DNA of 64,000 bases from an uncultured Bacillota bacterium (GCA_949299565.1 OX437086.1:949644-1013643); one strand, 5' to 3'. Shown: positions 6,703 through 52,258, counted from the stretch's first letter. Notes: generated from the letters alone by a model not told the origin. A program made the numbers and translations.

Positions 6703-6777
6703 TGGTGACCCAGCCGGGAGTCGAACCCGGGATTCAACCTTGAGAGGGTTGCGTCTTAACCACTTGACCACAGGGCC
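6703..6777 (-). tRNA. tRNA-Glu(CTC)
   Basis: GGCCCTGTGGTCAAGTGGTTAAGACGCAACC-CTCTCAA-GGTTG...TTCGACT...CCA cloverleaf. Confidence 0.93.
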
Positions 6778-6832
6778 AGCCATGAAATTAAAGCACCGCT
6801 CCTAGGCAAAAACAAGCAAAAAAGGAAAATGA

Positions 6833-8482
6833 TTAGAAGGAAAGAAGGCGACGTTTTGTCTCCTCTTCACCCAATATTTCAATAACCTCGTGAAGATTTG
6901 GTGACTCCTTCGCGCACGTTAAGGCTAAACGCAAAATCTCCGCTGCCATTGCCATATTTCCCCGATAATTAGTTGGATTGAGTTTATATTCTTTGTTTTG
7001 AACGGCAAAATTGAATTTTTTGGCAACTTCTTTAACTGAATTCCACCAACTGCTTTCATCAACGTGATAAGCCATTTCATTCGCTAAAACATTTAAATAT
7101 TCATGAATGAATTCGGAATCGAAAGAGGAATCAAATGTTAAAGGAGTTTCGCGCATCTTCATATAATCTTCAGGGAAGAAGAAAGAAGTAAGACGCACGA
7201 TGTCTTCATAGGTTGCATAGTCCTTACGCGGATTCAGCCGTTCTTTCTCGATATCAAGAATTTTTGCTAAATATTCTTCGCGTCCTTCTACTTTTTTAGC
7301 AAACACAGGCGCATATTCTTTCGCCCAACGAAGAAGCGGCTCAATTAAATCCTTTCCTTTTTGCGTCGCTAACCACTCCTTTGAAAAATAGGTCAATTTA
7401 TCGAGATCCATTAAAGCACCGTCAAGCGACATCTTCTTTAAAGAAAAGACGAATTTATCTAAATCAAGCGAATGATTTTCTAATGACCACTCCTCGAAAT
7501 TAGAATTGGCGATGCTCATAAGATAAAGCAATAAACCTTGAGGCGGATAACCTTTCTCTAAGAAATAGGAGACGGCGGCTTCCGGATCTTTTCTCTTTGA
7601 AAGTTTGCGTTTATTGCCGTGATCAAGTTTCATGATGACTGGTAAATGCGCGTATTTTGGCGCTTGAAAACCAAGAACGCGGAAAAGCTCCAAATGGATA
7701 GGCGTTGAAGGAATCCATTCCTCTCCTCGCGTCACTAAATTAGTTCCCATGAGATGATCATCAATTGCGTGGGCAAAATGATATGTCGGTAAACCATCAC
7801 TTTTTAAAATTACAATGTCAACATCGTTATCAGCGATTTCTAGATTGCCGCGAATTTCGTCATGAAAAGTAATCTTATGGTTGTGATCGCCTTCGCTTCT
7901 TAGACGAATAACCCACGGTTTTCCTTCTTTTATGTATTGGATTTGTGTCTCGACGTTGAGATTGCGATCACGGGCATAAGCTCCATAATAACCGGGGAGA
8001 ATTTTATTTGCTTCTTGGAAATCACGGATTGCTTGGAGCTCGCTGGCAGTGCAAAAATCTGGATAAGCTCTTCCTTTTCGCACTAAATCTTTGACAAACA
8101 CTTTATAAATGTCGCCTCTGAGCGATTGTCGATACGGGGCATAAGCGCCTTTTTCGCCATCGGGTGTAAAGCCTTCGTCCGCAATAATCCCAAACTTTGC
8201 CAATTGCGTAATTAATTCCTGCGCACTGCCCTGGATTGTCCTTTTTGTATCCGTATCTTCAATCCGCAAAAAGAAAACGCCATCGCTTTGTTTTGCAAGT
8301 TTATAAGCTAAAAAAGCCGTAAAGAGACTGCCGGTATGGAGAAAGCCTGTCGGAGAAGGAGCAAAACGCGTGACGAGAGCGCCTTCTTTCAAGGAACGCT
8401 TCGGATATTGCTTTTCAATATCTTCTGGTGTTTTTTGCACTTCCGGAAAAAGCAATTCAGCTAATTCATAGTTGTCACTCAT
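6833..8482 (-). CDS. gltX: Glutamate--tRNA ligase
   Basis: RFAPSPTGFLHTG, LRIEDTD, RGEEW and KLSKR motifs. Confidence 0.95.
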   Translation of the reverse strand: MSDNYELAELLFPEVQKTPEDIEKQYPKRSLKEGALVTRFAPSPTGFLHTGSLFTAFLAYKLAKQSDGVFFLRIEDTDTKRTIQGSAQELITQLAKFGIIADEGFTPDGEKGAYAPYRQSLRGDIYKVFVKDLVRKGRAYPDFCTASELQAIRDFQEANKILPGYYGAYARDRNLNVETQIQYIKEGKPWVIRLRSEGDHNHKITFHDEIRGNLEIADNDVDIVILKSDGLPTYHFAHAIDDHLMGTNLVTRGEEWIPSTPIHLELFRVLGFQAPKYAHLPVIMKLDHGNKRKLSKRKDPEAAVSYFLEKGYPPQGLLLYLMSIANSNFEEWSLENHSLDLDKFVFSLKKMSLDGALMDLDKLTYFSKEWLATQKGKDLIEPLLRWAKEYAPVFAKKVEGREEYLAKILDIEKERLNPRKDYATYEDIVRLTSFFFPEDYMKMRETPLTFDSSFDSEFIHEYLNVLANEMAYHVDESSWWNSVKEVAKKFNFAVQNKEYKLNPTNYRGNMAMAAEILRLALTCAKESPNLHEVIEILGEEETKRRLLSF

Positions 8483-8532
8483 CTTCCTACTCCTTCTTTA
8501 ATCCGCCAAAGATTATAAGACACTACTTCTAC

Positions 8533-8561
8533 TTGCGAAACTTTTTTATGCTCTCTATAAT
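8533..8561 (+). promoter_or_regulatory. Sigma-A promoter of tRNA-Gly(GCC)
   Basis: TTGCGA-17 nt-TATAAT, 16 nt before the tRNA. Confidence 0.75.
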
Positions 8562-8577
8562 AAGCAACGCTCACCAT

Positions 8578-8651
8578 GCAGGTGTAGTTCAGTGGTAGAA
8601 CATTACCTTGCCAAGGTAACTATGCGGGTTCGATTCCCGTCACTTGCTCCA
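8578..8651 (+). tRNA. tRNA-Gly(GCC)
   Basis: GCAGGTGTAGTTCAGTGGTAGAACATTACC-TTGCCAA-GGTAA...TTCGATT...TCCA. Confidence 0.93.
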
Positions 8652-8661
8652 GAGCGTTATT

Positions 8662-8690
8662 AAACCCAGCATCAAACTGGGTTTTTCTTT
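8662..8690 (+). terminator. Intrinsic terminator after tRNA-Gly(GCC)
   Basis: AAACCCAG-catcaaa-CTGGGTTT followed by a T-rich tail. Confidence 0.75.
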
Positions 8691-8734: not shown

Positions 8735-9361
8735 ATGAAAAAAGAAGATCGACGTTATTTTAAAAAGCGGCAACGCGCTTATTTGGTTTTCAAACGCTTC
8801 TGCGATATCAGTTTGTCTTTCCTTGTTCTTCTCGTCTTCTCGTGGTTTTTGTTAATCATTTATCTGATTACTAAATGCACTTCCAAAGGACCTGGCATTT
8901 TTAAGCAACGCCGTGTCGGACGCAATATGAAGACTTATAACTGCTACAAATTTCGTTCGATGCGAATTGATGCCCCTCACTATCTAGCGCCCTCCGAAAT
9001 GCAAGAAAGCACCCAACAAAGCTATGTTACTAAATGGGGAAAGTTCATGCGCAAAACTTCGCTTGACGAACTTCCGCAACTTTTCAATATTTTAAAGGGC
9101 GACATGTCTTTTATCGGTCCGCGTCCTGCAACTGAACAAGAAGTTGAATTAAATGAAAAACGCGAATCTTACACTCCGCGTGTTTCTCTTTTGCGACCCG
9201 GCTTATCAGGTTTAGCGCAAGTGAAACTCAAAAGGCAGCATGACCCTCTCAAAAAAGCTGAATTAGACGCAGAATATGTGAAAAACGTTTCGTTTTCTTT
9301 AGATACTAAACTCTTTTTTAAAACTGCTTTTTCAATTTTTGGTTCCGAACAAGGGCGTTAA
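8735..9361 (+). CDS. Priming phosphoglycosyl (sugar) transferase
   Basis: KRFCDI, one TM segment, YKFRSM, SLDELPQLFNILKGDMSFIGPRP and PGLSGLAQV motifs. Confidence 0.9.
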   Translation: MKKEDRRYFKKRQRAYLVFKRFCDISLSFLVLLVFSWFLLIIYLITKCTSKGPGIFKQRRVGRNMKTYNCYKFRSMRIDAPHYLAPSEMQESTQQSYVTKWGKFMRKTSLDELPQLFNILKGDMSFIGPRPATEQEVELNEKRESYTPRVSLLRPGLSGLAQVKLKRQHDPLKKAELDAEYVKNVSFSLDTKLFFKTAFSIFGSEQGR

Positions 9362-10512
9362 TTATCGCCTTTATTTCCGTCGCGCGTTCCATAATCTGAA
9401 AGATCCGGCGCACTACTGGATTTCGGAGAATCTATCTCTTTTTGCTCGGCTTTTTCATTATCAACTTTCGTGTCGCCGCGCCCGTAATCATCAGTGCTCG
9501 GAGTCTCCATATCATTTGGATTTTCTCTTTTGCTCTCATCGATTCTTCGTTTCAATTGCTCGGCTTGCTCTTCAGAAATCCTCTGCATCATTTTTAATTG
9601 CTCTAAAGTTTGAAGAGCTAAACGATCGGCCATTGATTTGAAGTTATTAGAGAAATGAGCGAAAAGAACGTCCATCAATTCCAAGTGGTACGGTAAATAA
9701 AAAAGAATGAAGAGAAGCGAGAACGCAATCCCAAAACCCGCAACCGCAAAATAATTGCTTAAAAACAACGTTCCCAAATATGAACCGAGCGCAAATCCGC
9801 CGATCATCAACGGGTATAACGGCCATGCGTGCTTATAATAAGCGCCTCGGTATTTATTCCCAAGCAAGCGAATCGTCATCTGATAAATCTGATTTTGCCC
9901 GCGATTATTGAGTTGTCGGACAGAATTTTTCAAATGCGGAAGCAACATGTTGCGGAACAATAAATGAAGGAAGACAAAGAAGAAAATTCCAATCCGCACA
10001 ATATTTGCAGTTCCATAGAAAAGGCTCAAAGCTTGGTTATTGTTGACGATGTTGATAATCTCGTTGGGGTCAATGTGTTGAATCGCTTCTTGAAGTTCGG
10101 AAATTCCCTCTTGAAAAAGCGGCCAATAAGCGCTGGCAATCAAGACAAAAAAATTCTGATAAACGTAACCGAAAAAGATGCTGAACAAAAGCGCGAATAA
10201 AGCGCTGCGAATAACGCGGTACGAGCCGTAAAAAGGGTGAGAAAAATAGGCGGCGAAAGATCGGAAAAATTCACCCCAAGATATCGTCTTTCCCTTTATT
10301 TTCAAAGTCGAAAGGGATGTTTGAAAAGCGAAAAGTAACGGCAAAATCAAAAATGGAGCCGTAATAAGATAAGTCCAAGGCTGATAAACTCCTAAAATCA
10401 GAAAGGCAGCGAGCATAATGAAAAAGGAAAGAAAAGGTGGCCAAAACCTGACACCGCACTCCTTCAGCTGACTGAAAGATTCTTTCATCAAACCCTTTTC
10501 CTCATTTTCCAT
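9358..10512 (-). CDS. Multi-pass membrane protein with charged C-terminal tail
   Basis: About 6-7 hydrophobic segments and a disordered acidic tail with two DYG motifs. Confidence 0.7.
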   Translation of the reverse strand: MENEEKGLMKESFSQLKECGVRFWPPFLSFFIMLAAFLILGVYQPWTYLITAPFLILPLLFAFQTSLSTLKIKGKTISWGEFFRSFAAYFSHPFYGSYRVIRSALFALLFSIFFGYVYQNFFVLIASAYWPLFQEGISELQEAIQHIDPNEIINIVNNNQALSLFYGTANIVRIGIFFFVFLHLLFRNMLLPHLKNSVRQLNNRGQNQIYQMTIRLLGNKYRGAYYKHAWPLYPLMIGGFALGSYLGTLFLSNYFAVAGFGIAFSLLFILFYLPYHLELMDVLFAHFSNNFKSMADRLALQTLEQLKMMQRISEEQAEQLKRRIDESKRENPNDMETPSTDDYGRGDTKVDNEKAEQKEIDSPKSSSAPDLSDYGTRDGNKGDN

Positions 10513-11146
10513 CTTTTTCTTCCTCCAGCGCTTTCAGTTTCAATTCATGCAAATCCTGAACGGCTTGCCATAGTTCTCGTTGAACAAAAGGTCGGACATT
10601 TTTTGCTTCATAAGTAGAAATAACGCGTTCTAACTTAGAGATCGGCACTAACAAATTCTCTTCATCCTGCGCTTCTAATTGATTGATAAAACAATCGTCA
10701 TTGATCAAAACAATGCCAATCATAAAAGCCGAATTAATTCCGCTGGCGATCGAGAGGCGCTCTAAGGCAAAACGATTCTCGAAAAGAGGATTTATCAAAT
10801 CCAATTTTCGATCGTCTTTCCGATAATTGATCCACCGCTCGTCGTTGAGGCGAACGTTAATCGCGCCTTCAAAATAACGATCAGTAATGACATAAATATA
10901 TTTATCGCCGGCTAAAACGTGGTCAATTGAGAGATAATTATTACCATCAAGACGAACTTTTAAACCGTTTATTAGATAATAATCACCATTTCTAGCAACA
11001 CGCATTACGGCATTATAGAAGGTTTTTGCGAGGTTTTTTCTTTGAATCTCGCGTTTTAAAGGACGATAAAAGAAAAGCAAAAAGAAAAGAACAGCCAAAA
11101 CAATGACGATAAGCGAAAAAATTGTGACCCTGACATTATAGGGCAT
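10502..11146 (-). CDS. Membrane-anchored NERD-like protein
   Basis: N-terminal TM segment; IDHVLAG...YVI...YFEG and NPL..N match the NERD pattern. Confidence 0.7.
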   Translation of the reverse strand: MPYNVRVTIFSLIVIVLAVLFFLLFFYRPLKREIQRKNLAKTFYNAVMRVARNGDYYLINGLKVRLDGNNYLSIDHVLAGDKYIYVITDRYFEGAINVRLNDERWINYRKDDRKLDLINPLFENRFALERLSIASGINSAFMIGIVLINDDCFINQLEAQDEENLLVPISKLERVISTYEAKNVRPFVQRELWQAVQDLHELKLKALEEEKDGK

Positions 11147-11148
11147 TA

Positions 11149-11871
11149 TCAGGCAAACCTTTCCGCCAAAGCAATCGCTAAACTTACCATTTGCGAGAGG
11201 CCTTCTTGCCGCTCGGCACTATTAAGATGTGTATCATGTGAGAAAGAATCGGTGACCGTTAGAAGCGCCAAAGCCTTCTTCCTTAACTCGCTGGCAATCT
11301 GAAATAAAGCGTAAGATTCCATCTCGACGCCTAAGACCCCTAAATCACGCCATTTATCAGCGGTGCGGGGATCGTGATCATAAAAGATGTCCGCGCTTAA
11401 AATATTTCCGACTTGGAAAGGCAATTTCCGTTCACGCGCAATTTTCACAGCTTCCTCGAGTAGCGAAAAAGATGATAAGGCACTATATGTCGCTCCCCTT
11501 AAATCCCATTGACTCATCCAATTGCTATCAGTTGAAGCGCCTTGCGCAATTACAAGATCTTTGAGTTGAACATCTGAAAGATAAGTTCCCATCGTGCCGA
11601 TTCGAATCAAGGATTCAACTCCATAATAAGTGAACAATTCGCGAGCATAAATTCCGATTGAAGGCATCCCCATTCCAGAAGACATCACTGAGATCCTTTT
11701 ATGTTTGTCTTTACTATAACCAGTGTAGGCAAGTTCACCACGCACATCATTAATCAAACGAAAACCATCTAAATAATTCTCTGCAATCCAACGAGCTCTT
11801 AAAGGATCGCCCGGTAATAAAACAACTTTCGCAAAATCGCCTTTTTCTGCTGCAATATGATGTGTCGCCAT
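11149..11871 (-). CDS. deoD: Purine nucleoside phosphorylase (DeoD type)
   Basis: LPGDPLRA, GMGMPS, IRIGT and VEMES motifs. Confidence 0.93.
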   Translation of the reverse strand: MATHHIAAEKGDFAKVVLLPGDPLRARWIAENYLDGFRLINDVRGELAYTGYSKDKHKRISVMSSGMGMPSIGIYARELFTYYGVESLIRIGTMGTYLSDVQLKDLVIAQGASTDSNWMSQWDLRGATYSALSSFSLLEEAVKIARERKLPFQVGNILSADIFYDHDPRTADKWRDLGVLGVEMESYALFQIASELRKKALALLTVTDSFSHDTHLNSAERQEGLSQMVSLAIALAERFA

Positions 11872-11883
11872 TCTTTTACCTCA

Positions 11884-12390
11884 CTAGTCTATATCTATCG
11901 TATAAGTTCCGCTTAAAACATCAATAAAAGAACGATGAGAGTCACTGCAAATGATAATAAAGAATTCCATAACCGCGTAAAGTCCGCATGTAAAAATAAA
12001 AAGAAGGAAGGAGGTCATTGAGCGAACCAAAAGAGATTTAAAACTCACATTTTTCCCTTCTTCATTCACCAGTCGCATTCTAAAAAAACGCAATCCCAAA
12101 GTTTGGCCATGACTGACATAAGGAAGGAACAAAAAATAAGCGATAACAACGATGGCGATCACCGCTCCACTCGCAAACATCGAAAGGAAAACAGAAAAAG
12201 TTCGCCAAGCAGAAGGCTCAGCCAACGCATGAATAAAAACGACTAAAGCTGGCAGTAGCAAAATAATTGAGGCCAAAATCATCACGGCCAAGTCAAAAAG
12301 AGCAGCCACAATTTTGTGAGATGGGCTTGCGGTTTCGCTTAAAAGCGGTCCTCTGATTTCCCGCATTAAAGAACTCTTTTTTTCTTCCAT
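11884..12390 (-). CDS. RDD-family membrane protein
   Basis: GQTLGLR and ...D.LSGT RDD motifs plus TM segments. Confidence 0.8.
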   Translation of the reverse strand: MEEKKSSLMREIRGPLLSETASPSHKIVAALFDLAVMILASIILLLPALVVFIHALAEPSAWRTFSVFLSMFASGAVIAIVVIAYFLFLPYVSHGQTLGLRFFRMRLVNEEGKNVSFKSLLVRSMTSFLLFIFTCGLYAVMEFFIIICSDSHRSFIDVLSGTYTIDID

Positions 12391-12436
12391 CAAAAAAAGA
12401 TTACCACTACTTATCCTTTTCTAAAAGAAAAGAAAA

Positions 12437-14221
12437 TTAGGAAACAGTGACAGATTTTGCTAAATTACGTGGGAAATCAATCGGTCGCTTTAAAAGAAGC
12501 GATAAATAATAAGAGAGATATTGCGCAAACAAAGCAGCCGGGAAGAAATCCAAAAGGTGATATGGCGTTTCGGGTAAAATGAACGCATCGCTTTTTTCGG
12601 CTAAATTAGAAGAACTGACTGTATAAATTTTAGCTCCTCGAGCGCGTAATTCTTGTAAGTTACTGCGGAACGGCAAATGAAGTCTTTCTTCCAAATCAAA
12701 GGCAATGATTGGTACCCCTTCTTCGAGAAGGGCAATCGGTCCATGCTTGAATTCGCCAGACGCATAACTTTCAGCGTGAACATAGGCTACTTCCTTAATT
12801 TTTAAGGCTGCCTCTCGACTCAAAGCTTCCCCAATCCCTTTGCCGACCAAATATAAGTCTCGATGATCGAGAAGCTGTTCAGCAATTTTTTTGATCTCTT
12901 CTCGCTGTTCCTTTACCATTTTCAAATTTGAAAAAAGAGAATCGGAAAAAGCCTCAGGCAGTTTATCGTCATGAATTTGATAAGCTAAAAGGAAAAGGGT
13001 ATAAACTTCGGCTAAATAACTTTTGGTGGAGGCTACAGCCCGTTCGCTTCCAGCCATAAGTGGCAAAGTATAATCGGCTAAAAACGTCATTGCCGAAGCT
13101 GGCTTATTGACAAGCGCAACTTGCTTATAGCCTTCTCTTTGCACGATTTTGGCTAAGCGAATCAAATCGGCAGTTTCGCCTGACTGCGAAAGGAAAAAGA
13201 AAAACGGATGAGATGATTTCTTGGGAAAAGGGTCTTCAACTTCGCTTGCAAGAATGACTTCAACGCGAGTTTCCGGGAGCAAAATCTTAAAAAAGTGTTG
13301 AGCCGCCAAACAAGCGTGATACGAGGAACCACACCCCCCTAAAACGATGCAGTCAGTGTTTCGTGCTTCTTCTAATAAGGACTCAGAGAGGTGAGCATCG
13401 TGCCCGTAAGATGCTGTTAGACGTTCAAGAGTCGGAATCCCTTCTTCAATTTCTTTGAGCATGAAGTGCGGATATTTTCCTTTTCCTTCATTGCTCAAAA
13501 GCCCTTCTAAATCTTGTTTCGGGAAGTCATCTAAATTCACTTCTTCTCCGTTTCGATAAATCAAACATTTATTGTGTCCTAAAACGCCGTAAACGCCATC
13601 GGGAAGCGCATAAGACACTTGTGCGCCCAAAGTCACTAGAGCCTCAACATCAGAGGCTAATAAATAATCATCTTCGCGCGGTGAAAGATATAAGGAGCTG
13701 CCCTGCTTCGCAAAAAAGATATCCGATGAGCCGTTGAACATGATCGCGAGAGCAAACGATCCTTCTAATTCGTGAAAAAGAGCCTTTAAAGCATCGAGAG
13801 GAGCCGTTCCTTTCATAAGATGCTCCTCTAAAATATCCGCGACTATTTCGCTATCGGTGTCTCCGTAAAAGGAATAACCCTCTTCTTCAAAATGCGCTCT
13901 CCAAGAATCGGCGTTGTCGATAACTCCGTTATGAACAAGGCAAACTTTTTTATTGAGCGAAAGATGTGGGTGAGCGTTTGGAAGAGAAGGTTTTCCGTGT
14001 GTTGCCCAGCGATTGTGAGCAATCAACGCTTTGACATTTCCTTCAACATTAAGGCGCAATTTTTTGACGCCTCCAACGGCTTTTTGAATATTGAAATGTC
14101 CGTCATCCATTAAAAAAGCCACGCCACAAGAATCATACCCACGATATTCTAAGGCACTCAATCCTTTGATAACTTCGTTTTTTGGATCAAGCGGCTTTGT
14201 TAAAGCAATGATTCCACACAT
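12437..14221 (-). CDS. glmS: Glutamine--fructose-6-phosphate aminotransferase
   Basis: Starts MCGII (ATG 14221 overlaps the glmM stop); EYRGYDS, SQSGET, VASTK and PRNLAKSVTV motifs. Confidence 0.95.
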   Translation of the reverse strand: MCGIIALTKPLDPKNEVIKGLSALEYRGYDSCGVAFLMDDGHFNIQKAVGGVKKLRLNVEGNVKALIAHNRWATHGKPSLPNAHPHLSLNKKVCLVHNGVIDNADSWRAHFEEEGYSFYGDTDSEIVADILEEHLMKGTAPLDALKALFHELEGSFALAIMFNGSSDIFFAKQGSSLYLSPREDDYLLASDVEALVTLGAQVSYALPDGVYGVLGHNKCLIYRNGEEVNLDDFPKQDLEGLLSNEGKGKYPHFMLKEIEEGIPTLERLTASYGHDAHLSESLLEEARNTDCIVLGGCGSSYHACLAAQHFFKILLPETRVEVILASEVEDPFPKKSSHPFFFFLSQSGETADLIRLAKIVQREGYKQVALVNKPASAMTFLADYTLPLMAGSERAVASTKSYLAEVYTLFLLAYQIHDDKLPEAFSDSLFSNLKMVKEQREEIKKIAEQLLDHRDLYLVGKGIGEALSREAALKIKEVAYVHAESYASGEFKHGPIALLEEGVPIIAFDLEERLHLPFRSNLQELRARGAKIYTVSSSNLAEKSDAFILPETPYHLLDFFPAALFAQYLSYYLSLLLKRPIDFPRNLAKSVTVS

Positions 14222-15567: not shown

Positions 15568-15603
15568 CGATCAATTTCTTTTCAATATTTTAGACATTAT
15601 CAA

Positions 15604-38600: not shown

Positions 38601-38615
38601 GATATCAAAATAAAA

Positions 38616-38632: not shown

Positions 38633-38644
38633 CTTTTATTAATT

Positions 38645-38721: not shown

Positions 38722-38730
38722 CTAATAATT

Positions 38731-39771: not shown

Positions 39772-42122
39772 TAATTCCTCTTAATTAAAAGTTTCAAAGC
39801 TTTGAAAAATTCATGATTTGAAAACGCGACAATAAACGGAGCCCATTTGGGATTGATGCCTCCGGCCCCCATCATTCGAATCGGCATATCTAAAACCATT
39901 TTTAATTGTCGCGGGTTCTTTTCAAACATCTTCAATAATTTTTTGTAGCAAATATTCCCAATGAACGTCCCAATAAAATCGCGGAAAGGCGAGTCGATTG
40001 TGAACGGACGCCCTTTATGTTTTATCTCCTCTAAATGCGCGTTTTTTTCAATGAGACTTAAAAATTCTTCATCAGAACATTCAAAGTTATTGTCGTTTAA
40101 GACCTTTAAAAAATGTTTAGAGAGAGAATTTTCTTTCACTATTTCCCCGTCGAGTTCAACTTCAAGTTTGATCGGTAAATCGATTGATGAAAAACCCAAA
40201 TAAAGTTCGTGAAGCCCTTTTTCTATCACAAATTTCTTTTGCTCGGAGTCATAAAAAGAAAATCTCTCGCTTGGAATTAAAACGCTTATTTCTCGTTCCT
40301 CATGAGAATCAAGTTCGACTTTTAAAAAGAAAATCAATTCGCAGAGTGGCGAAACGCGAGACAAACTCTTTGGCCCGCAATAGATTTGCACAACCGCCAT
40401 TCCGGCTCGTTCTCCGGTGTTTTCAAGAGAGAACTTCAATTTGATATTTTCGCCGTCAAGAGAAGAGGAAGGATTTTTAATTGCAAAGGTTGTATAAGAA
40501 AGGCCGTGTCCGAAGGGATAAAGAACGGGACGTGAGACGCTCGTATAATAACGATAGCCAACAAAAAGCCCCTCCTTATACGAGACAACCCGTTGATCTT
40601 TAGCAAACGAAGAAAAAGACGGCACGTCCTCTAATGCCAAAGGCCAAGTTTCCGATAAATGTCCTGACGGATTGAGCTGACCAAGCAAAATATCGTTTAA
40701 AGCCTCAGCCGTCGCCTCGCCTGAAAAATATGTTAAAAGAACCGCTTCAGCCTTTTCTGCAGGAATAACAAGCGGACCCCCGCTCATCACAACCAAAATA
40801 ATATGAGGATTCAAAGCATATAAAGCCCCTAATAAATCCAATTGGTTCTTTGGCAAATCGATATTTTGTCGATCGTATCCCTCTGAAAATTCTGACTCGG
40901 GAAGCCCGATAAAATAAACAATATGAGCAGCAGAAGCCGCAAGGTCTAAAGCATCCTTAAAAAGTTCCTTGTCTTCCTTATCATCAAGGCGATAGCCGGG
41001 CGCGTAGTTACAAACGCCATTCGAAGAAGTAACAAGTTCTTTGAAGGAAGTTTTGTTTTTCGGGACAACGTGCGAGGAACCATTGCCTTCAATCGGAAAT
41101 TCCTCCATTATTGCTCCGATAAAAACCGTCTTTTCGTAATTAGAAAGTGGCAAAACGTTTTCCTCGTTTTTAGCCAAAACAATGCTTTCGGCAGCGGCTT
41201 TTTTAGCAATTTGATGAGATGCAAGGAAAGAAAAGTCTTTTTTATTTTTGGAACCGCTTTTTGCCTTCTCGCTCATTTTGGTGAGACGATCAGATGACTC
41301 GACGACTTGTTCCATTTTTAAGTCACCACGTTTTAAAGCTCTAAAAAGAGAATGCGTGCGGTCCGCACTCCCGGGCATTTCAAGATCCAAACCAGCTGCA
41401 TGAGCCTTCACGCAGTCAGAGACTGCTCCCCAATCAGACATCACGACCCCTTCATATTTAAGTTCGCCGCGCAATATGGTTTTTAAAATATAGGGGTTTT
41501 CTGAGACGTAAATGCCATCATAAGCATTGTAGGAGCACATTATGGCCCAGGGGTTGGCGTTTTTAATCACCATCTCAAATGGACGTAAATAAAGTTCATG
41601 AAAAGCGCGTTCATCAACCTCTGAACTAGAGGAAACTCGATATGTTTCTTGATTATTCAATAAATAATGCTTGACGCAAGCACCAACGCCTTCTTCTTGC
41701 AACGAAGAAACAAAAGAAGAGGCAAGAACCCCTGTTAAAAGCGGATCTTCACTCCAATATTCAAAATTTCGACCGCCTCGCGGATCACGCTTAATGTTAA
41801 TTCCGGGCCCCAGAATTAAATTCGTATTAAACGCCTGCATCTCTTGCCCGAATATATGGCCTAATTCGCTTATCAATTGAGGATTCCAAGTGTTTGCTAG
41901 AGCAGAAGAAGTCGGATAGCATGTCGCGGGAACAGATGTCGGATCGGGATTCGAATCATCAAGAGTTATGCGTAGTCCCGTTGGCCCGTCGTGCATGATT
42001 ACGCATTCTAAATCGCAGGACGGAAAAGCGTACGTCCCCCAAGGACCATTTCCTGTCAATGAACGGAGACGTTCAGCAAGAATGACATCGTCAACACGGT
42101 CTTCTAATTTAATTTTTTTCAT
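39771..42122 (-). CDS. GH3 beta-glucosidase
   Basis: DGPTGLR, GRNFEYWSEDP, KHY, MSDWG and YPFGHGLSYT motifs. Confidence 0.93.
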   Translation of the reverse strand: MKKIKLEDRVDDVILAERLRSLTGNGPWGTYAFPSCDLECVIMHDGPTGLRITLDDSNPDPTSVPATCYPTSSALANTWNPQLISELGHIFGQEMQAFNTNLILGPGINIKRDPRGGRNFEYWSEDPLLTGVLASSFVSSLQEEGVGACVKHYLLNNQETYRVSSSSEVDERAFHELYLRPFEMVIKNANPWAIMCSYNAYDGIYVSENPYILKTILRGELKYEGVVMSDWGAVSDCVKAHAAGLDLEMPGSADRTHSLFRALKRGDLKMEQVVESSDRLTKMSEKAKSGSKNKKDFSFLASHQIAKKAAAESIVLAKNEENVLPLSNYEKTVFIGAIMEEFPIEGNGSSHVVPKNKTSFKELVTSSNGVCNYAPGYRLDDKEDKELFKDALDLAASAAHIVYFIGLPESEFSEGYDRQNIDLPKNQLDLLGALYALNPHIILVVMSGGPLVIPAEKAEAVLLTYFSGEATAEALNDILLGQLNPSGHLSETWPLALEDVPSFSSFAKDQRVVSYKEGLFVGYRYYTSVSRPVLYPFGHGLSYTTFAIKNPSSSLDGENIKLKFSLENTGERAGMAVVQIYCGPKSLSRVSPLCELIFFLKVELDSHEEREISVLIPSERFSFYDSEQKKFVIEKGLHELYLGFSSIDLPIKLEVELDGEIVKENSLSKHFLKVLNDNNFECSDEEFLSLIEKNAHLEEIKHKGRPFTIDSPFRDFIGTFIGNICYKKLLKMFEKNPRQLKMVLDMPIRMMGAGGINPKWAPFIVAFSNHEFFKALKLLIKRN

Positions 42123-42163: not shown

Positions 42164-44485
42164 CTAGCAAAAAGGCATCCATAAATTATCAAAAACCCTC
42201 GCAATCGAGAAAAAATCACCGCCGTTCAAGCCGTCAAAATTATTAAAGGCCAGAGAAAAAGACAAGACTAACGTTGGAACAAGCAAAAGGAAAGAGACGC
42301 TATTGGCCAGTGAAAGACCATTATTCAGTTTCTTGACCCGTGTTTCATAAAGCAACGACCAACTCCCTAATGAAATTAGAGCGCTCATTGGCCATAAAGC
42401 TAGTTGATAACGATAGCAAACACCAGCTAGAGAATACGTGCTCCCGGCCACAAACAAAAGAGCCAAAATCCCTAAGAACAATCCCGAACAAACATATTTT
42501 TTCTTCTTCGAAATAGCAAAAAAGAAAGCGAAAAGACCATAAAAATAAGGATTCATGAAAATGCCGATAACGCCGACGTTATATGGATGCGTTTCGTTAG
42601 CGAGATTCAAAATGTTTAATTCAAAGAACGGCCACTGGTTAGACACTCGATATGGCGTTAGAAAGTAATGACAGACGCCATCGAAGAACCCTTGAAGAGA
42701 ATAACCATATTCCCGCGCATCAACGATCGTCAATTGATAAGAACTGCCAAATTCCAAAACATTATCAAAGCGCGCGTAATTATAAAAACCAAGAAGAGAA
42801 ACGCCCGCCCCTAAAAGCACGAAAGGCGGAAACAATGTCAAAAACTTTTGTGCAAGGGTCTTTTCTTTCGAACGAAAATAAAAAACAAGAAAAGGCAATA
42901 AAAGAATTGCAAAAATCGCTAAATCTGGTCGAGAAGATAAAACAATCAAAAGAGCGAAAGCAGTTAAAGTCAAAAAGAAAGTTTGCTGACGCGTTTTCTT
43001 AAAAGACAGAAAGACGAAAACCAACATCCAAACCAAACCCATAAGCCCGTAAGTGAAAGGCAGACGATATTTCCAATCCGTCCAACGTTCGGCCAAAAAG
43101 GAAAGAGGCAACGAAGAAAAATAAGCAGCAACCATAAGGAAAATGAAAAGTTTTAATGGCATTGAAGGAGAGATTTTTTCAACAAGAAGCGACCCTAAAT
43201 AGAAAAAACCAACGCTATAAACAATCAAAGAAAAAGCCATCATGAAAACGCCGTTCGGAACTTGGCCTGTCAAAAAATAAACCGGAAACATCGTGATGAA
43301 TAAAGGAGCGGGACCGTAATAGCAATAATATTTTCCGTTATAGAAAGCCGTATCCCACAAATATTCAACGCCCAATAAATTCGTTGGATTATAGGGATTG
43401 CTCACCATAAGCAATTCATCTGAGGGAACATTTAACAAAGAAAATTGTCCATGCAAAAAAGCATCGAACAAGTTGTAATAAAGAAATGGGTTTCCCTCAA
43501 GAAATTCCTCATCAAAAGGATATGAAGTGAGATATCTAGTTGGGTAAAGAATCACAAGCACAAGGAAACAACAAAAAGCCAAACCTCCAGTTTTTAAAAC
43601 ATAAGAACGAAAGTGGGAGTGAACGCATGATGTCGTCTTCGGACTCTGGAAATTAAAAATCAAATTCAAAAGCGTCAAAGACGTAATAGATAGAAGCGAG
43701 AATCGCAAAGAAGAGAAAGTCGGCACCAAAGGAGGATCGATTGTAATCCCGTCCAACAATAGAACTGAGTTTTGTCCAACTCGACCACGAAGATAATTAA
43801 TTTCTAAACGCAAATTTAGACTATCTTCTGGAACATCAATACGCATGCTTGCAAGATAAAGCGGATTGAAACTGCCGTTTGAATAAGGAATGAAAGGCTC
43901 TTCGCTTGTTCCTCTTTGAACGCTTAAAAGATATTCAAATTCCTGATTGCTAGATGGAAGTTGCAGAGAAAATGATGAAATGCCGTCAGATGGAAAAGTT
44001 AAAATCGTCCCGTTTTCAATCGAAATTCTATCGCCCTCATAAGTTGTAGAAATTATTTGACTATATTCTAACGTCGATGAATGATCATCCGCGCCTATCG
44101 CTTGAGCATTGAAAGCGAAAGCCTCTAAGAAAAGAAAAAGAAATAAAGAAGAAAGTGAGAAAGCAAACTTAAGTTTCTCTTTGACTTGCAACGAAGAACT
44201 TAAAATTTTTAAAAAGAACTTTCCTGGTTCTAAAAAAGCGATAAAGAGATTAAAAAAGAAAAAGAGAAGCGCGAAATTCCAAAGTTGAAAACTAGGAAAA
44301 AGAAAATAAAAAAGGAGTCCAAAAATTAAATTCGAAAGAAGAAGGAACGAGAAGCTTAAAGATTTAGATAAAACAAGGAGTTCATAATTTATCTTCTCTT
44401 TTTTGCGAACAATACGGATAAAAGAAAAAGCGAAAGAAAGAAAGAAAAGAACGAAAGGATATAAAAATAGGAAAAGCCAGATCAT
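42164..44485 (-). CDS. Large polytopic membrane protein, putative GT-C glycosyltransferase
   Basis: Many TM segments; WDTAFYNGKYYCYYGP, SRP and YNYARF..EFG..YQLT motifs. Start 44485 overlaps the ogt stop (ATGA); 44518 is an alternative start. Confidence 0.65.
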   Translation of the reverse strand: MIWLFLFLYPFVLFFLSFAFSFIRIVRKKEKINYELLVLSKSLSFSFLLLSNLIFGLLFYFLFPSFQLWNFALLFFFFNLFIAFLEPGKFFLKILSSSLQVKEKLKFAFSLSSLFLFLFLEAFAFNAQAIGADDHSSTLEYSQIISTTYEGDRISIENGTILTFPSDGISSFSLQLPSSNQEFEYLLSVQRGTSEEPFIPYSNGSFNPLYLASMRIDVPEDSLNLRLEINYLRGRVGQNSVLLLDGITIDPPLVPTFSSLRFSLLSITSLTLLNLIFNFQSPKTTSCVHSHFRSYVLKTGGLAFCCFLVLVILYPTRYLTSYPFDEEFLEGNPFLYYNLFDAFLHGQFSLLNVPSDELLMVSNPYNPTNLLGVEYLWDTAFYNGKYYCYYGPAPLFITMFPVYFLTGQVPNGVFMMAFSLIVYSVGFFYLGSLLVEKISPSMPLKLFIFLMVAAYFSSLPLSFLAERWTDWKYRLPFTYGLMGLVWMLVFVFLSFKKTRQQTFFLTLTAFALLIVLSSRPDLAIFAILLLPFLVFYFRSKEKTLAQKFLTLFPPFVLLGAGVSLLGFYNYARFDNVLEFGSSYQLTIVDAREYGYSLQGFFDGVCHYFLTPYRVSNQWPFFELNILNLANETHPYNVGVIGIFMNPYFYGLFAFFFAISKKKKYVCSGLFLGILALLFVAGSTYSLAGVCYRYQLALWPMSALISLGSWSLLYETRVKKLNNGLSLANSVSFLLLVPTLVLSFSLAFNNFDGLNGGDFFSIARVFDNLWMPFC

Positions 44486-44931
44486 ATTTTTTCTCGTGCT
44501 TCTAAAGACAAGAGCCATTCCTTTTTCTTCGTTCCTAGAAGAAAGCCGCCTAATCCGTTTTGTGAAACAACTCGGTGGCAAGGAACGACTAACAATAGCT
44601 TATTGCGTTTCAATGCTTGTCCGATCGCTCTATAGGCTTGACTGCCGATTGCTTTGGCAATCTCTCTATAAGTTTTTGTTTCGCCATAAGGAATCTTAGC
44701 AGTCTCCAAATAAACTTTTTCGGCAAATTCACTGGCCTGAATCTTGAAAGGAAAACTAAAACTTTTTCGTTTTCCAGCAAAATATTCTTTAAGTTCTTCA
44801 ATAACACTCAAGAGAAAAGAAGAAGTCGTCATAGTTATTTCTTCATCAACCACTTCTAGTTCCAAAAGAACATCGTTCTCCGAAACTAATTTCAAGTTTC
44901 CTAAAGGAGAAGCGATAATTGCGATAGCCAT
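44482..44931 (-). CDS. ogt: Methylated-DNA--protein-cysteine methyltransferase
   Basis: IPYGET.TY, RAIG and PCHRV active site. Confidence 0.92.
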   Translation of the reverse strand: MAIAIIASPLGNLKLVSENDVLLELEVVDEEITMTTSSFLLSVIEELKEYFAGKRKSFSFPFKIQASEFAEKVYLETAKIPYGETKTYREIAKAIGSQAYRAIGQALKRNKLLLVVPCHRVVSQNGLGGFLLGTKKKEWLLSLEAREKI

Positions 44932-44980
44932 AGCGTGATTATACAAAAAAAGACGAGCGATGTCGTCTTTACTTTTTGTT

Positions 44981-45056
44981 TGGTGGAGCGTAAGAGGATC
45001 GAACTCTCGACCTCCTCCATGCCATGGAGGCGCTCTCCCAGCTGAGCTAACGCCCC
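44981..45056 (-). tRNA. tRNA-Ala(GGC)
   Basis: GGGGCGT with G3:U70; CCTCC-ATGGCAT-GGAGG; followed by an AGACGA/TCGTCT terminator. Confidence 0.93.
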
Positions 45057-45085: not shown

Positions 45086-46519
45086 CTATGACTTAATCAC
45101 TTGCTTGTCAAGAGAATCTCCGTGAGAAGAAGGAGTGTCGGCTGTCTCTTTTGCCTCTGTTTTCTCAAGACGATTATTGGAATCGTCACCATTTTTATTT
45201 TTGAGAAGAAGTTTTAAGAAAATCGGGGTAAGGAAAGAAGTTAAAAGAATCAAGATCAGCGTAAACGGCATAATGGAAGAACTGACTAACCGCGCATCAA
45301 TGCCTGTTTGAGCTGTTACAATCAAGACTTCGGCACGCGCCATCATTCCAACGCCGATAGCCCCCGACTCCCGCAAATTAAATTTTGAGAGTAAACCACC
45401 GGCACCGGCGCCAATCACTTTTCCTAAAGCTCCGACAAGTACCCAAACTAAGCCAAAAAGCAAGAATGTTATGTCGCTGAAATCAAATGTCGCGTCATAC
45501 ATTTTAAGCGCCACCGAAGCAAAGAAAATCGGAATGAAAAAGACGTTTGCCGTCGTTTCAGTGCGGTGATCGATATAACCTTTCGGTTGAGTTGAGCTGA
45601 GAATTAACCCCGCGATGTAAGCGCCGGTAATATCCGCGATTTGGAAAAATCCTTGCGCTAAATAAGCCCATAAAAAACAGAAGGCAAAACCAAAAATCGG
45701 AATCCTGATATGATGCGGGAACTTACGTCCGAGCCAATTGAAGATCGGACGCACCAAGAAGCCGGCGCCAATTGATAAACCGAAGAAAAGCGCCATATTG
45801 CAAATAATCACGATAACTTCCGTCGTCGCATTTAAACTGCCGCCGCAGGATGTGATAATCCAGGCTAATAAATTGAAATCGCTCGAACCGCCGCTTGAAC
45901 CAGAAAGAGAAATAACGAGAGATAAAGTAATGATACCGATGATGTCATCGATAATGGCCGCGCTGACAATCGCGTTGCCGACTTTGCTTTCTAATTTTCC
46001 CAGTTCTTTTAAAGTCGCAACCGTAATCGAGACGCTAGTAGCCGTCAAAATAACGCCATAATAAATGTCGCTATAAATCGGATTGACGCCAGGCTCAAGG
46101 AAACTAGCCTCCATTCCGGCATACTCGCGGAAAAGGAAGGCAACAACAAAGCCTAAGGCTAAAGGCACGGCTACCCCTAAAGTCGTAATAATTCCGGCTG
46201 CCTTTCCAACCGATTTAACAGCTTTTAAATCTGTTTCGATTCCGGCTGAAAACAAGATCAAGACAACACCGATTTTTGCGAGAATGTCGATGCCATTCAT
46301 CGTATAATCAGTGATTATCGTCTCGCCCGGAATAAAGGTTATGAGGCCAACAAGTAGCCCCGCAACCAAAAAACCGATAACTTGAGGGACTTTTATTTTT
46401 TGAAAAAGCAACGCGAAAACTTTCGCAGCAATCAAAATCAAGGCTATCGGCAAAAGAACCATGAAAGGAGAACCATCACTAACTTCCCCGTTCAACATAA
46501 AGGCACCTAACTCAGGCAT
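45086..46519 (-). CDS. CPA2-family cation:proton antiporter
   Basis: ATSVSIT, IIDDIIG and GMMARAEV motifs; about 13 TM segments; no RCK domain. Confidence 0.9.
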   Translation of the reverse strand: MPELGAFMLNGEVSDGSPFMVLLPIALILIAAKVFALLFQKIKVPQVIGFLVAGLLVGLITFIPGETIITDYTMNGIDILAKIGVVLILFSAGIETDLKAVKSVGKAAGIITTLGVAVPLALGFVVAFLFREYAGMEASFLEPGVNPIYSDIYYGVILTATSVSITVATLKELGKLESKVGNAIVSAAIIDDIIGIITLSLVISLSGSSGGSSDFNLLAWIITSCGGSLNATTEVIVIICNMALFFGLSIGAGFLVRPIFNWLGRKFPHHIRIPIFGFAFCFLWAYLAQGFFQIADITGAYIAGLILSSTQPKGYIDHRTETTANVFFIPIFFASVALKMYDATFDFSDITFLLFGLVWVLVGALGKVIGAGAGGLLSKFNLRESGAIGVGMMARAEVLIVTAQTGIDARLVSSSIMPFTLILILLTSFLTPIFLKLLLKNKNGDDSNNRLEKTEAKETADTPSSHGDSLDKQVIKS

Positions 46520-46618
46520 AGAAAATCCTCCGGCGAGATTATAGTCTCCTTAAAAAGAAAAGGTGATAGAACTTTCACGATTTTTTGTAACGCTGTAAGA
46601 TTTAAATGAGGTGGATTT

Positions 46619-46957
46619 ATGAAAACGATTCTTTTTGCTGTTCTCGACCGTGGAGAAAAAACCGATCTTCTTTACCAAGCAATAATCAAGGAAGGTTTCA
46701 ATGGCACGATGATTAAAACACAAGGCCTCCGCCATATCCTTGAACGGCAAATCTATGAAAAACCCGCCGTGCTCTCACTTTCACAAATCGCTGAAAACAC
46801 TCATGAATCAGGTCAAAACTCGACGATGTTTTTTATCGTTGAAGCGCGCGATTTATTGCGTCTAGAAGATCTTATTCGTCAACACACCGGCGACTTCAAA
46901 GACATTCATGGCTGTATGTTCGTTCTACCGATTCAAGACTTTGAAGGAAGTTTTTAA
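46619..46957 (+). CDS. PII-like small protein
   Basis: 112 aa with the ferredoxin-like PII pattern G.T.I.T.G...N.T.F.IV...G.MFVLP; SD GAGGTGG. Confidence 0.7.
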   Translation: MKTILFAVLDRGEKTDLLYQAIIKEGFNGTMIKTQGLRHILERQIYEKPAVLSLSQIAENTHESGQNSTMFFIVEARDLLRLEDLIRQHTGDFKDIHGCMFVLPIQDFEGSF

Positions 46958-46958
46958 T

Positions 46959-47516
46959 TTATTCTTCTGACCAAGTTTTTAAAAGTTCGTCAACAGTGTA
47001 AACGCTGGCACCATAGACGCTTTTAAGATAGGAAATGCCGCTTTTATAATCCTCTTCAGTAAAGGAATCGGTGGCGTCAGAAGCAACGACAACTTCATAA
47101 CCGAGGCAATAAGCATCCGCGGATGTATGACGAACGCACATATGCGTGTGCAATCCCGTCATCACAACTGTCTCAATTCCAAGTTCATGCAATAAAAGAT
47201 CTAAATCCGTATGGAAAAAACCGCTATAACGACGTTTCGGCACTACATAATCAGTCGGAGAGAGTTCTAATTCCGGAATCACCTGCGCACCGAAAGTTCC
47301 AGCAATCGCGTGATCGCCCCATAATTTAAGTTCGTGATCGATTCCTTTAATATGCGCATCATTACAGAAAATAACGGGTATCCCTAATTTACGTGCTCCC
47401 TTTAAAAGGCGAGCGGTTGCAGGCACAATCGCCAGTCCTCGGTCGCATTTTAAGGCTCCTGTCACAAAGTCGTTCAGCATGTCAACGACGAGAATTGCTG
47501 TCGTTTTTTTCTTCAT
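46959..47516 (-). CDS. Isochorismatase-family cysteine hydrolase (nicotinamidase-like)
   Basis: VDMLNDF, DAH, WGDH, KRRYSGF and THMCV motifs. Confidence 0.88.
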   Translation of the reverse strand: MKKKTTAILVVDMLNDFVTGALKCDRGLAIVPATARLLKGARKLGIPVIFCNDAHIKGIDHELKLWGDHAIAGTFGAQVIPELELSPTDYVVPKRRYSGFFHTDLDLLLHELGIETVVMTGLHTHMCVRHTSADAYCLGYEVVVASDATDSFTEEDYKSGISYLKSVYGASVYTVDELLKTWSEE

Positions 47517-47538
47517 TTTTCGCTCCTCTTTTTATTTC

Positions 47539-47615
47539 TGGCGCGCCAGAGCCGACTCGAACGGCTGACCCCTTCCTTAGGAGGGAAGTGCTCTATCCAA
47601 CTGAGCTACTGGCGC
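47539..47615 (-). tRNA. tRNA-Arg(CCT)
   Basis: GCGCCAGTAGCTCAGTTGGATAGAGCACTTCC-CTCCTAA-GGAAG...GCCA. Confidence 0.93.
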
Positions 47616-47752
47616 TGCGAAGAAAAAATACACTTTTTATAAGCGTTTGCCTAGTGTTCTTCAAAAAGTAAAGAAATTATAGGAAACATATGTAAAGGCA
47701 TTTCGCACATTTATAAAGAAAAAACCTCGACCAAGTCGAGGATCATTGCTAT

Positions 47753-47829
47753 TGGTCGGAACGACGGGATTCGAACCCGTGACCTCCTGGTCCCGAACCA
47801 GGCGCACTACCAAGCTGTGCTACGTCCCG
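47753..47829 (-). tRNA. tRNA-Pro(CGG)
   Basis: CGGGACG...CCTGG-TTCGGGA-CCAGG...ACCA; followed by a CCTCGAC/GTCGAGG terminator. Confidence 0.93.
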
Positions 47830-52257: not shown

Positions 52258-52258
52258 A

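Follow-up and report, generated by a model that had tools for sequence, protein, structure and literature searches.

An ordered series of eleven single-copy auxiliary tRNA genes downstream of polC in an uncultured Bacillota bacterium and its relatives

Introduction

In Bacilli and Mollicutes, transfer RNA (tRNA) genes are found in large operons, the order of which is known from the literature on Mycoplasma capricolum and Bacillus subtilis, and tRNA genes may also be co-transcribed at the ends of protein operons, as exemplified by secG-leuU of Escherichia coli. Here, we describe a series of eleven tRNA genes that lie dispersed among protein genes downstream of polC in a stretch of 64,000 nucleotides (nt) from an uncultured Bacillota bacterium (GCA_949299565.1, OX437086.1). 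This stretch, hereafter referred to as the window, corresponds to bases 949,644-1,013,643 of a genome that is represented by one contig, with a length of 1,061,998 bp and a guanine-plus-cytosine (GC) content of 41.4%.

Two published concepts bear on such an arrangement. A tRNA array unit, as defined in the part of Tran et al. (2016, PMC4758250) considered here, consists of at least 20 tRNA genes at a density of at least two per kb. The second concept is that of auxiliary tRNAs, for which we follow the definition in Wald and Margalit (2014, PMC4041420): all tRNAs with C at anticodon position 34 (C34) except those for Met and Trp, plus the G34 tRNAs of four-codon boxes. Operon linkage of auxiliary tRNAs was sought in that study and, according to the sections covered here, was found only for Glu-CUC/Gln-CUG. 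Our full-text literature search, the scope of which did not include the supplementary operon tables of PMC4041420, retrieved no description of a loose cluster consisting of auxiliary tRNAs only.

Results

Eleven tRNA genes without U34 species

In the window, ARAGORN and the Rfam model RF00005 alike found exactly eleven tRNA genes, all of them within positions 6703-47829 and in the order Glu-CTC, Gly-GCC, Gly-CCC, Val-GAC, Thr-CGT, Leu-CAA, Arg-CCG, Leu-CAG, Ala-GGC, Arg-CCT and Pro-CGG. With RF00005 scores of 55.2-70.4 bits, as compared to a gathering score of 29, all eleven qualify as bacterial tRNAs. C34 is present in eight of them and G34 in three, whereas U34 is absent, and each anticodon occurs once. 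A preliminary description of this DNA, made from the sequence alone, had reported the same genes, coordinates and anticodons as well as the absence of U34 species and of repeated anticodons, all of which were reproduced by both programs. Ten of the genes are on the minus strand and one (Gly-GCC) is on the plus strand, all encode the CCA end, and their density over the 41,127 bp amounts to 0.27 per kb.

In the whole genome, 47 tRNA genes and one transfer-messenger RNA were detected; a genome scan with Rfam yielded the same 47 genes and one weak match below threshold that does not fold as a tRNA. Position 34 is C in 16 of these genes, G in 16, U in 14 and A in one. The 47 genes represent 45 distinct anticodons, with only Asp-GTC and Met-CAT being present twice. 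Each four-codon box is served by a G34 (A34 in the case of Arg), a U34 and a C34 species, and each purine-ending split box by a U34 and a C34 species. For a genome of 1 Mb, the tRNA set is complete and nearly all of it is single copy; both Arg-TCG and Arg-CCG are present beside Arg-ACG in these 1.06 Mb.

The series accounts for 3.9% of the genome length and for 11 of the 47 tRNAs. Under the rule of PMC4041420 as given above, the genome contains 20 auxiliary genes, and all eleven members of the series are among them; the probability of drawing eleven out of eleven from these 20 is 9.6e-6 (hypergeometric), while that of finding no U34 species among eleven is 0.011. Beyond the eleven, Pro-GGG, Lys-CTT and Ala-CGC prolong the run on the circular map to 14 consecutive auxiliary genes, for which p equals 1.5e-5 if labels are shuffled and 4.4e-4 if whole transcription units are shuffled. 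The corresponding run of non-U34 genes comprises 19 genes (p ~0.003), and the placement of eight transcription units inside 41 kb has a p of 0.0026 under random placement. These figures are generous, because the region was picked after it had been seen; the auxiliary and mandatory classes, on the other hand, are those of the cited parts of PMC4041420. The spatial segregation proposed in the preliminary description is real and exceeds chance, as judged by the auxiliary-run and hypergeometric tests, and the recurrence of the series in relatives is a stronger argument than the p-values.

An auxiliary tRNA shares its codon box with a U34 species of the same genome, and such a partner exists for all ten boxes concerned: Glu-TTC, Gly-TCC, Val-TAC, Thr-TGT, Leu-TAA, Leu-TAG, Arg-TCG, Arg-TCT, Ala-TGC and Pro-TGG. 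Arg-CCG is needed where Arg-TCG is absent, but both are found in this genome. The U34 and other mandatory tRNAs are located elsewhere, at 327-948 kb. The genes mnmA and mnmG for U34 modification, the presence of which the preliminary description had proposed to check, are both in the genome. About 21% of all codons in this genome are read by one of the eleven tRNAs through Watson-Crick or G-U pairing and, thus, these tRNAs are not idle. Their best identity to an isoacceptor within the genome is 0.69-0.88, and only the two Asp-GTC copies reach 0.97. On these identities, an origin by recent duplication or anticodon switch was rejected.

With dnaA and the minimum of the GC skew at about 200 kb and the skew maximum at about 710 kb, the series lies 265-306 kb from the origin, i.e. 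in the middle of the replichore, with ten of the eleven genes on the leading strand. A dosage effect of proximity to the origin was rejected on account of this position.

Conservation in the genus and family

Forty congeners were searched for the series. tRNA-Pro(CGG) follows polC at a distance of 28-40 nt in all 17 congeners with sequence at this place, two more loci ending at or inside polC, and it has the same place in members of other genera (G063, G093 and G242). Pro-CGG, Arg-CCT and Ala-GGC occur in that order in all ten congeners with longer flanks. In eight of these ten, Leu-CAG and Arg-CCG come next; in G008 and G015, nothing further was found ahead of the contig end. Six of the ten also have Leu-CAA, either on the same contig (G009, G005, G017, G023 and G007) or on the next one (G021). 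Across the ten, the order is unchanged, and Arg-CCT is inverted in the close relatives G002, G004 and G007. The complete series of eleven is found in the same order in G021, on two contigs (C10 and C9) and over about 24 kb. In G063, which belongs to another genus of the family and has a GC content of 0.35, nine of the eleven recur in unchanged order along 55 kb, together with Arg-TCG. The order is kept across a regional GC content of 0.35-0.54.

Orthologous tRNAs of the genus have the same anticodons and are 0.73-1.00 identical (Leu-CAA 0.59-0.87) at a PolC identity of 54-63%; Ala-GGC is 100% identical in four of the eight congeners compared. The spacing between the same neighbours ranges overall from 4 nt to 15 kb across relatives: from 8 nt to 7.8 kb for Pro-CGG/Arg-CCT, from 96 nt to 4.5 kb for Arg-CCT/Ala-GGC, from 5 nt to 2.7 kb for Leu-CAG/Arg-CCG, from 35 nt to 6.6 kb for Arg-CCG/Leu-CAA, from 8 nt to 4.7 kb for Thr-CGT/Val-GAC and from 4 nt to 0.7 kb for Val-GAC/Gly-CCC. 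Leu-CAG and Arg-CCG are separated by 5-11 nt in G009, G005, G017 and G018 and are adjacent in G063 too, and the gap between Val-GAC and Gly-CCC is 4-5 nt in G009 and G005. For each of these junctions, which lie within the sub-clusters proposed below, at least one species shows a tight spacing (8, 96, 5, 35, 8 and 4 nt, respectively). In several relatives, the contig ends a few kb after polC, which would fit strain-level variation there.

Series fragments and tRNA repertoires in other families

The other families of the order have GC contents of 0.24-0.33, and several of their members carry pieces of the series. In G025, polC, Arg-CCT, Arg-CCG and Leu-CAA lie in this order inside 3.5 kb; Ala-GGC directly follows polC in G030, G035, G040 and G028; Val-GAC and Gly-CCC are found in G036, and Pro-CGG is found 17 kb away in G033, where a rare A34 tRNA, tRNA-Pro(AGG), adjoins it (C3 ~225646-225815). 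Inspection of 8.6-20 kb of sequence following polC revealed no series tRNAs in G026, G027, G031, G037 and G039, and G032 and G038 have Gly-CCC alone, about 40 kb away. At 12 named Bacillota loci, there was no tRNA in the flank of polC. Of the whole series, G169, which represents a low-GC genus (0.23-0.27) of the same family, has retained no more than Arg-CCT and Ala-GGC at up to 60 kb from polC.

The tRNA repertoires were compared between two congeners and two outgroups. G009 (GC 0.54 in the fetched DNA and 0.74 at third codon positions, GC3) has 46 tRNAs with 44 anticodons, and G021 (fetched DNA GC 0.37, GC3 0.27) has 44 with 42 anticodons, three further genes being probably lost at a contig end. 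The outgroups, at GC 0.27-0.30, have 43 tRNAs with 37 anticodons (G028) and 39 with 36 (G038), of which the series anticodons account for 8 and 6 of the eleven, respectively. In both outgroups, Leu-CAG, Arg-CCG, Pro-CGG, Pro-GGG and Val-CAC are missing and the auxiliary tRNAs are dispersed. GC3 in these two genomes amounts to 0.14-0.17 and, based on crude calls of open reading frames (ORFs), their frequencies per thousand codons are 0.3-0.7 for CUG, 0-0.4 for CGG and 0.2-1.2 for CCG. The presence of these tRNAs among relatives thus varies with GC, as is the case for auxiliary tRNAs (G028, G038 and G169). Across the order, the tRNA set shrinks as GC falls, while the layout is independent of GC within the genus. 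These two observations, together with isoacceptor identities of at most 0.88, point to old genes and later losses rather than to a recent re-expansion.

Anatomy of the tRNA units

At nine of ten unit ends, a terminator consisting of a hairpin and a T-run starts about 10-20 nt past the tRNA; the exception is Arg-CCT. The earlier statement that most of these genes have their own terminator is thereby borne out. Six of the tRNAs are preceded, at 18-55 nt, by the stop codon of a gene that runs in the same direction, and this gap is free of terminators. Transcripts of the upstream genes would therefore be expected to run through these six tRNAs, the geometry of which fits co-transcription with the upstream gene. 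Promoter-like hexamers end 10-17 nt upstream of five tRNAs (Gly-CCC, Gly-GCC, Val-GAC, Leu-CAA and Leu-CAG); these matches are a geometric fit only, because they are not enriched over shuffled sequence.

Going from polC towards gltX, and on the minus strand of the window unless stated otherwise, tRNA-Pro(CGG) (47753..47829) lies 30 nt past the polC stop, with no terminator in the gap and a terminator hairpin at 47725-47741. tRNA-Arg(CCT) (47539..47615) has no terminator, and the ATG of the next gene is 22 nt downstream. tRNA-Ala(GGC) (44981..45056; terminator 44949-44970) starts 29 nt past an exchanger gene. The only pair, tRNA-Leu(CAG) and tRNA-Arg(CCG) (38645..38814; terminator 38612-38636), has 9 nt between its two members and starts 18 nt past a hydrolase gene. 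tRNA-Leu(CAA) (32425..32508; terminator 32383-32406) is located 25 nt past an ORF of 169 amino acids (aa) and has a promoter-like TTCAAA-16-TATAAT ending 10 nt upstream. tRNA-Thr(CGT) (22492..22567) is found 34 nt past the stop of a P-type ATPase gene and is followed by a two-way terminator (22459-22482). tRNA-Val(GAC) (17734..17809) has its terminator at 17701-17721, and tRNA-Gly(CCC) (17250..17323; terminator 17223-17239) is preceded by a promoter-like TAGACA-16-TATAAT (11 of 12 matches). tRNA-Gly(GCC) (8578..8651, plus strand; terminator 8662-8684) is divergent from gltX and has a promoter-like TTGCGA-17-TATAAT upstream, and tRNA-Glu(CTC) (6703..6777; terminator 6660-6693) starts 55 nt past the gltX stop.

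One terminator stem, TGCCGA..TCGGCA, has only four copies in the genome, each right after a tRNA, namely Gly-CCC, Thr-CGT and Arg-CCG of the series (window 17223-17239, 22459-22482 and 38612-38636) and Cys-GCA (genome near 853956). A close variant is present at Ser-GCT, and look-alike terminators are found for His and Glu-TTC and for Phe, Pro-GGG and Arg-TCG. This stem was considered as a mark of common origin and rejected, since terminators are not conserved between species; as they differ among species, it is a species-level quirk.

Protein genes around and between the tRNA genes

The anchor of the series, polC (47860..52266, minus strand), encodes a protein of 1468 aa with 45-63% identity to PolC of relatives and at most 42% identity to that of named Bacilli. 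The flanking genes are arranged in the order topA (C-terminus)-trmFO-xerC-rpsB-tsf-pyrH-frr, one unnamed ORF on the plus strand and uppS-cdsA-dxr-rseP-polC, so that the topA-xerC-rpsB-polC block of the preliminary description is confirmed in outline by gene identification. rseP (52259-53656) adjoins polC directly, whereas in Bacillus proS is located between the two; the tRNA gene that follows polC here is one for proline.

Some of the genes in the intervals form a conserved scaffold, and others are passengers with a patchy distribution. Behind polC, an isochorismatase-family gene (46959..47516, minus strand, PF00857) is a variable passenger, which is present in 17 of the 40 congeners but elsewhere there, e.g. 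beside another tRNA cluster in G021 (C12). The Na+/H+ exchanger gene (45086..46519, minus strand, PF00999) belongs to the scaffold and occupies the same interval in G021, G017 and G008. Beyond Ala-GGC, there is a variable cassette (42164..44946, minus strand) of ogt, for a methylguanine methyltransferase, and a gene for an 805-aa protein of no known family; the syntenic loci of relatives yielded neither of the two, and the 805-aa protein is encoded on other contigs in 19 of the 40 congeners. The genes for a GH3 glycosidase and an alpha/beta hydrolase (38833..42122, minus strand) are again scaffold, with the hydrolase upstream of Leu-CAG in seven relatives and GH3 in four. The next interval holds the genes for a GH31 glycosidase (minus strand) and a BspA-type leucine-rich-repeat surface protein (plus strand) at 33155..38529; its counterpart in G005 spans 35 nt and that in G021 spans 106 nt. 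The P-type ATPase gene (22602-25358, minus strand) is found at the same place in G021. Converging on Thr-CGT from the other side, a MarR regulator gene and two ABC exporter genes (18000..22196, plus strand) form a variable cassette that was not found in the matching interval of relatives. The region 8735..16988 carries, on mixed strands, pgpA, cdaA, glmM, glmS, an RDD gene, a purine-nucleoside-phosphorylase-family gene, a NERD gene, a gene for an unknown protein of 384 aa and a sugar transferase gene; it is mostly housekeeping scaffold with the same order in G021. The last gene is gltX for glutamyl-tRNA synthetase (6833..8482, minus strand, PF00749).

gltX is followed by the gene for one of its own substrates, tRNA-Glu(CTC), and has the divergent Gly-GCC upstream, and this trio is kept in G021, G009, G005 and G063. 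Between Val-GAC and Gly-CCC, an 85-aa ORF with a ribosome-binding site (window ~17370-17627, minus strand), which may resemble the DUF2188 family, has a conserved counterpart in G021 (68% identity at the DNA level along 162 nt) and none in G009 and G005. Outside the series, window 4904-5611 (minus strand) encodes a hexapeptide-repeat acetyltransferase closest to the Vat family of streptogramin A acetyltransferases (255 bits as compared to a cut-off of 300).

A tRNA-linked genomic island is marked by an integrase and a direct repeat of the tRNA 3'-end at its far border. None of the 30 interval proteins has an integrase or recombinase domain, the region contains no tRNA fragments longer than 12 nt (only chance matches of 11-12 nt) and no repeat families of note, and its GC content of 0.37-0.43 compares to 0.414 for the genome. 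The earlier suggestion that accessory genes sit at tRNA 3' ends thus holds for two patchy neighbours, which occur in 19 and 17 of the 40 congeners and lie elsewhere in these relatives; it does not extend to integrases or att-like fragments, none of which were found, and the housekeeping genes gltX and cdaA-glmM-glmS are interspersed as well.

AUA decoding and other elements next to tRNA genes

Inspection of the remaining tRNAs yielded a side lead that may be more novel than the tRNA series. In the genus, AUA is read by tRNA-Ile(UAU), the gene of which (genome 578934-579009, minus strand) lies just upstream of Ser-TGA, where outgroups carry an Ile2-type CAT tRNA; the two are 0.76-0.79 identical and have the acceptor stem GGACC in common. 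The only CAT tRNAs of the genome are those for initiation and elongation, and searches with relaxed ARAGORN, blastn and Rfam yielded neither a third CAU tRNA nor a CAU tRNA-Ile. Judging from these sequences, tRNA-Ile(UAU) has replaced tRNA-Ile2(CAU) in this genus. A TilS homologue of 418 aa is nevertheless encoded (genome 180566-181819, minus strand; TIGR02432 with 121.5 bits as compared to a cut-off of 93.6). It is full-length in 18 of 24 congeners and strongly conserved in its C-terminal half, but its PP-loop motif SGGxDS is altered in all seven congeners examined (SYGPDS, TYGPDS, TFGPAS and similar), whereas the motif is intact in five of five outgroup proteins. The homologue may be a pseudoenzyme or a repurposed tRNA-binding protein. 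In G009, AUA occurs 18.7 times per thousand codons as compared to 7.4 for AUU, which is unexpected at a GC3 of 0.74, albeit based on 61 crude ORFs only, and which may be linked to tRNA-Ile(UAU).

Two tRNA genes, tRNA-Leu(TAG) and tRNA-Trp(CCA), are directly followed by a 74-nt element with 94.6% identity between the two copies, and there is a partial third copy (genome 335802-335875, plus strand; 914471-914543 and 852476-852547, both minus strand). The three copies had no Rfam match at E up to 0.1. Nor did the elements after Phe, Pro-GGG and Arg-TCG match an Rfam family at E up to 0.1; they fold as long terminators. About 500 nt downstream of tRNA-Trp, there is a match to Rfam RF03112 (Staphylococcus-1 RNA; genome ~913906-914030, minus strand) with 81.5 bits and E = 3.8e-15, which is under the gathering score of 87.7.

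Discussion

The probable explanation of this archipelago is, in our view, that single-copy auxiliary tRNA genes downstream of polC have been passed on vertically as an ordered series, which has been pried apart from three clusters and one divergent pair. The presence and order of the genes, their conservation, the anatomy of the units and the lack of mobile-element marks are plain from the data, whereas we infer the compact ancestry, the co-transcription, and loss rather than gain. The ancestral clusters would have been polC-Pro-CGG-Arg-CCT-Ala-GGC, Leu-CAG-Arg-CCG-Leu-CAA and Thr-CGT-Val-GAC-Gly-CCC, next to the divergent pair of Gly-GCC and gltX-Glu-CTC. Such a series would be at least as old as the family. 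Protein genes would have been gained and lost between the self-contained tRNA units, lineage by lineage, and it is this gain and loss that would have stretched the copy of this genome to 41 kb. Expression would rely either on an own promoter with a short leader or on the transcript of the upstream gene, the tRNA being a passenger at its 3'-end, and transcription would stop at the terminator about 10-20 nt past the encoded CCA. The tRNAs would take part in ordinary decoding, with C34 species reading NNG and G34 species reading NNY codons. As a U34 isoacceptor is encoded elsewhere for every box, the series represents a dispensable layer of the decoding set, which would have stayed complete in the genus over a wide range of GC and would have eroded member by member in low-GC relatives.

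Several points weigh against this reconstruction. Most of the relatives are fragmented metagenome assemblies, and the junction of C10 and C9 in G021 was deduced from synteny. Tight junctions could equally be the result of deletions, and the polarity of insertion and deletion was read from the patchiness of just two tested passenger genes. In G009, G005 and G179, parts of the series are rearranged. The distance between Ala-GGC and Leu-CAG is never below about 2 kb, and Leu-CAA/Thr-CGT and Gly-CCC/Gly-GCC are never tight, so that a single ancestral array is unsupported. The promoter-like matches are no commoner than in shuffled sequence. The support from the PolC tree, in which the genomes of other families with fragments of the series fall in both main branches of the order, comes from a quick, single-gene tree with a midpoint root. 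Finally, Leu-CAG was unseen in the other families examined and Pro-CGG was seen in one only (G033), so these two could be family-level gains.

The preliminary description had suggested a re-expansion of the tRNA set with rising GC. Genes duplicated with a change of anticodon, or transferred, would then have landed at this place. The absence of Leu-CAG, Arg-CCG, Pro-CGG, Pro-GGG and Val-CAC from G028 and G038, where the matching codons are nearly unused, agrees with such a scenario, and so does the increase of auxiliary tRNA use with GC in the parts of PMC4041420 considered. However, the order is the same at GC 0.37, where G021 has all eleven, and at GC 0.35, where G063 has nine, and pieces of the series (Arg-CCG, Arg-CCT, Leu-CAA and Ala-GGC) follow polC in the low-GC genomes G025, G030, G035, G040 and G028 of other families. 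In addition, no member is a recent copy of an isoacceptor, loss dominates according to the same parts of PMC4041420, and what GC tracks is which members the low-GC relatives miss, the layout itself being present in lower-GC relatives. Such a shared layout is what the preliminary description itself had named as speaking against its reading. We therefore consider a re-expansion quite unlikely. Selection on the linkage itself is also unlikely: shared regulation, a common dosage on the same replichore or a coordinated keeping and shedding of members under drifting GC would hold the auxiliary half of the decoding set together as a linked neighbourhood whose members are shed or retained with GC and whose gaps between tRNA units are preferred landing sites of moving genes. 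The improbable run of 14 auxiliary tRNAs and an order kept over a deep divergence (PolC 54-63%) and a wide span of regional GC speak in its favour, and it would be the kind of linkage proposed by Wald and Margalit and, as far as the cited sections of PMC4041420 go, sought in vain beyond Glu-CUC/Gln-CUG. Separate terminators and mostly separate promoter-like sites leave no common transcript for such a unit, though, and G009, the one checked of the three genomes with a broken or rearranged series (G009, G005 and G179), keeps all these tRNAs. Members are lost singly rather than as a block in the low-GC genomes G025, G169 and G028, and a position in mid-replichore offers no obvious dosage logic.

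Horizontal acquisition of the region as a tRNA island, be it phage-borne, part of an integrative element or a tRNA array, is very improbable. The locally high tRNA density and the patchy passengers next to tRNAs would be expected of an island, but the lack of integrases, att-like tRNA fragments and notable repeats largely refutes a mobile element. Moreover, the GC content resembles that of the genome, no anticodon duplicates the rest of the set, housekeeping genes are interspersed and synteny is kept across the genus. We give just as little credence to chance combined with the choice of a region after viewing. That choice was indeed made, and the probability of 0.011 for zero U34 species is by itself modest; the unit-shuffled auxiliary run, however, is significant with classes defined by the literature, and the same series recurs in relatives.

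The lineage represents a natural series for studying how tRNA repertoires shrink under AT pressure, gene-wise or block-wise, and for asking whether tRNA mini-genes are fixed posts amid gene turnover. For annotation, the lesson is that the present pattern is to be read as inherited, and neither as a mobile island nor as a recent adaptation. The genes themselves are ordinary. What is unusual is a full set of 45 anticodons, nearly all single copy, in a genome of 1.06 Mb, the physical separation of the dispensable from the mandatory layer, and a layout that has outlasted deep divergence and a swing of GC3 from about 0.27 to 0.74 in one genus.

With regard to known systems, the series differs from the large operons of Bacilli and Mollicutes in that it holds none of their tRNAs and consists of singletons and one pair in separate units; other families of the order do keep operons of that kind for the mandatory tRNAs, e.g. 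Cys-Pro-Ala-Met-Met-Ser-Met-Asp-Phe in G028 and G038. The six tRNAs located 18-55 nt past a stop codon, with the terminator after the tRNA, resemble mRNA-tRNA co-transcripts as far as sequence geometry can suggest, but five units carry promoter-like hexamers of their own. As in tRNA-linked genomic islands, patchy genes adjoin the tRNAs, though without integrase and without a direct repeat of the tRNA 3'-end. Like tRNA array units as described in the part of PMC4758250 used here, the series is a place in a Bacillota-type genome where tRNA genes are locally concentrated; with eleven non-redundant genes at 0.27 per kb and protein genes between them, however, the series falls outside their definition. 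With the auxiliary tRNAs of Wald and Margalit (2014), it agrees in that all eleven are G34 or C34 species that can be covered by a U34 isoacceptor, and their presence tracks GC in a pattern that points to loss in low-GC relatives, in line with the general bacterial trend reported in the sections of PMC4041420 considered. Unlike the single linked pair given there, eleven auxiliary species, or 14 with the extended run, adjoin each other here as separate units over 41 kb and without forming an operon.

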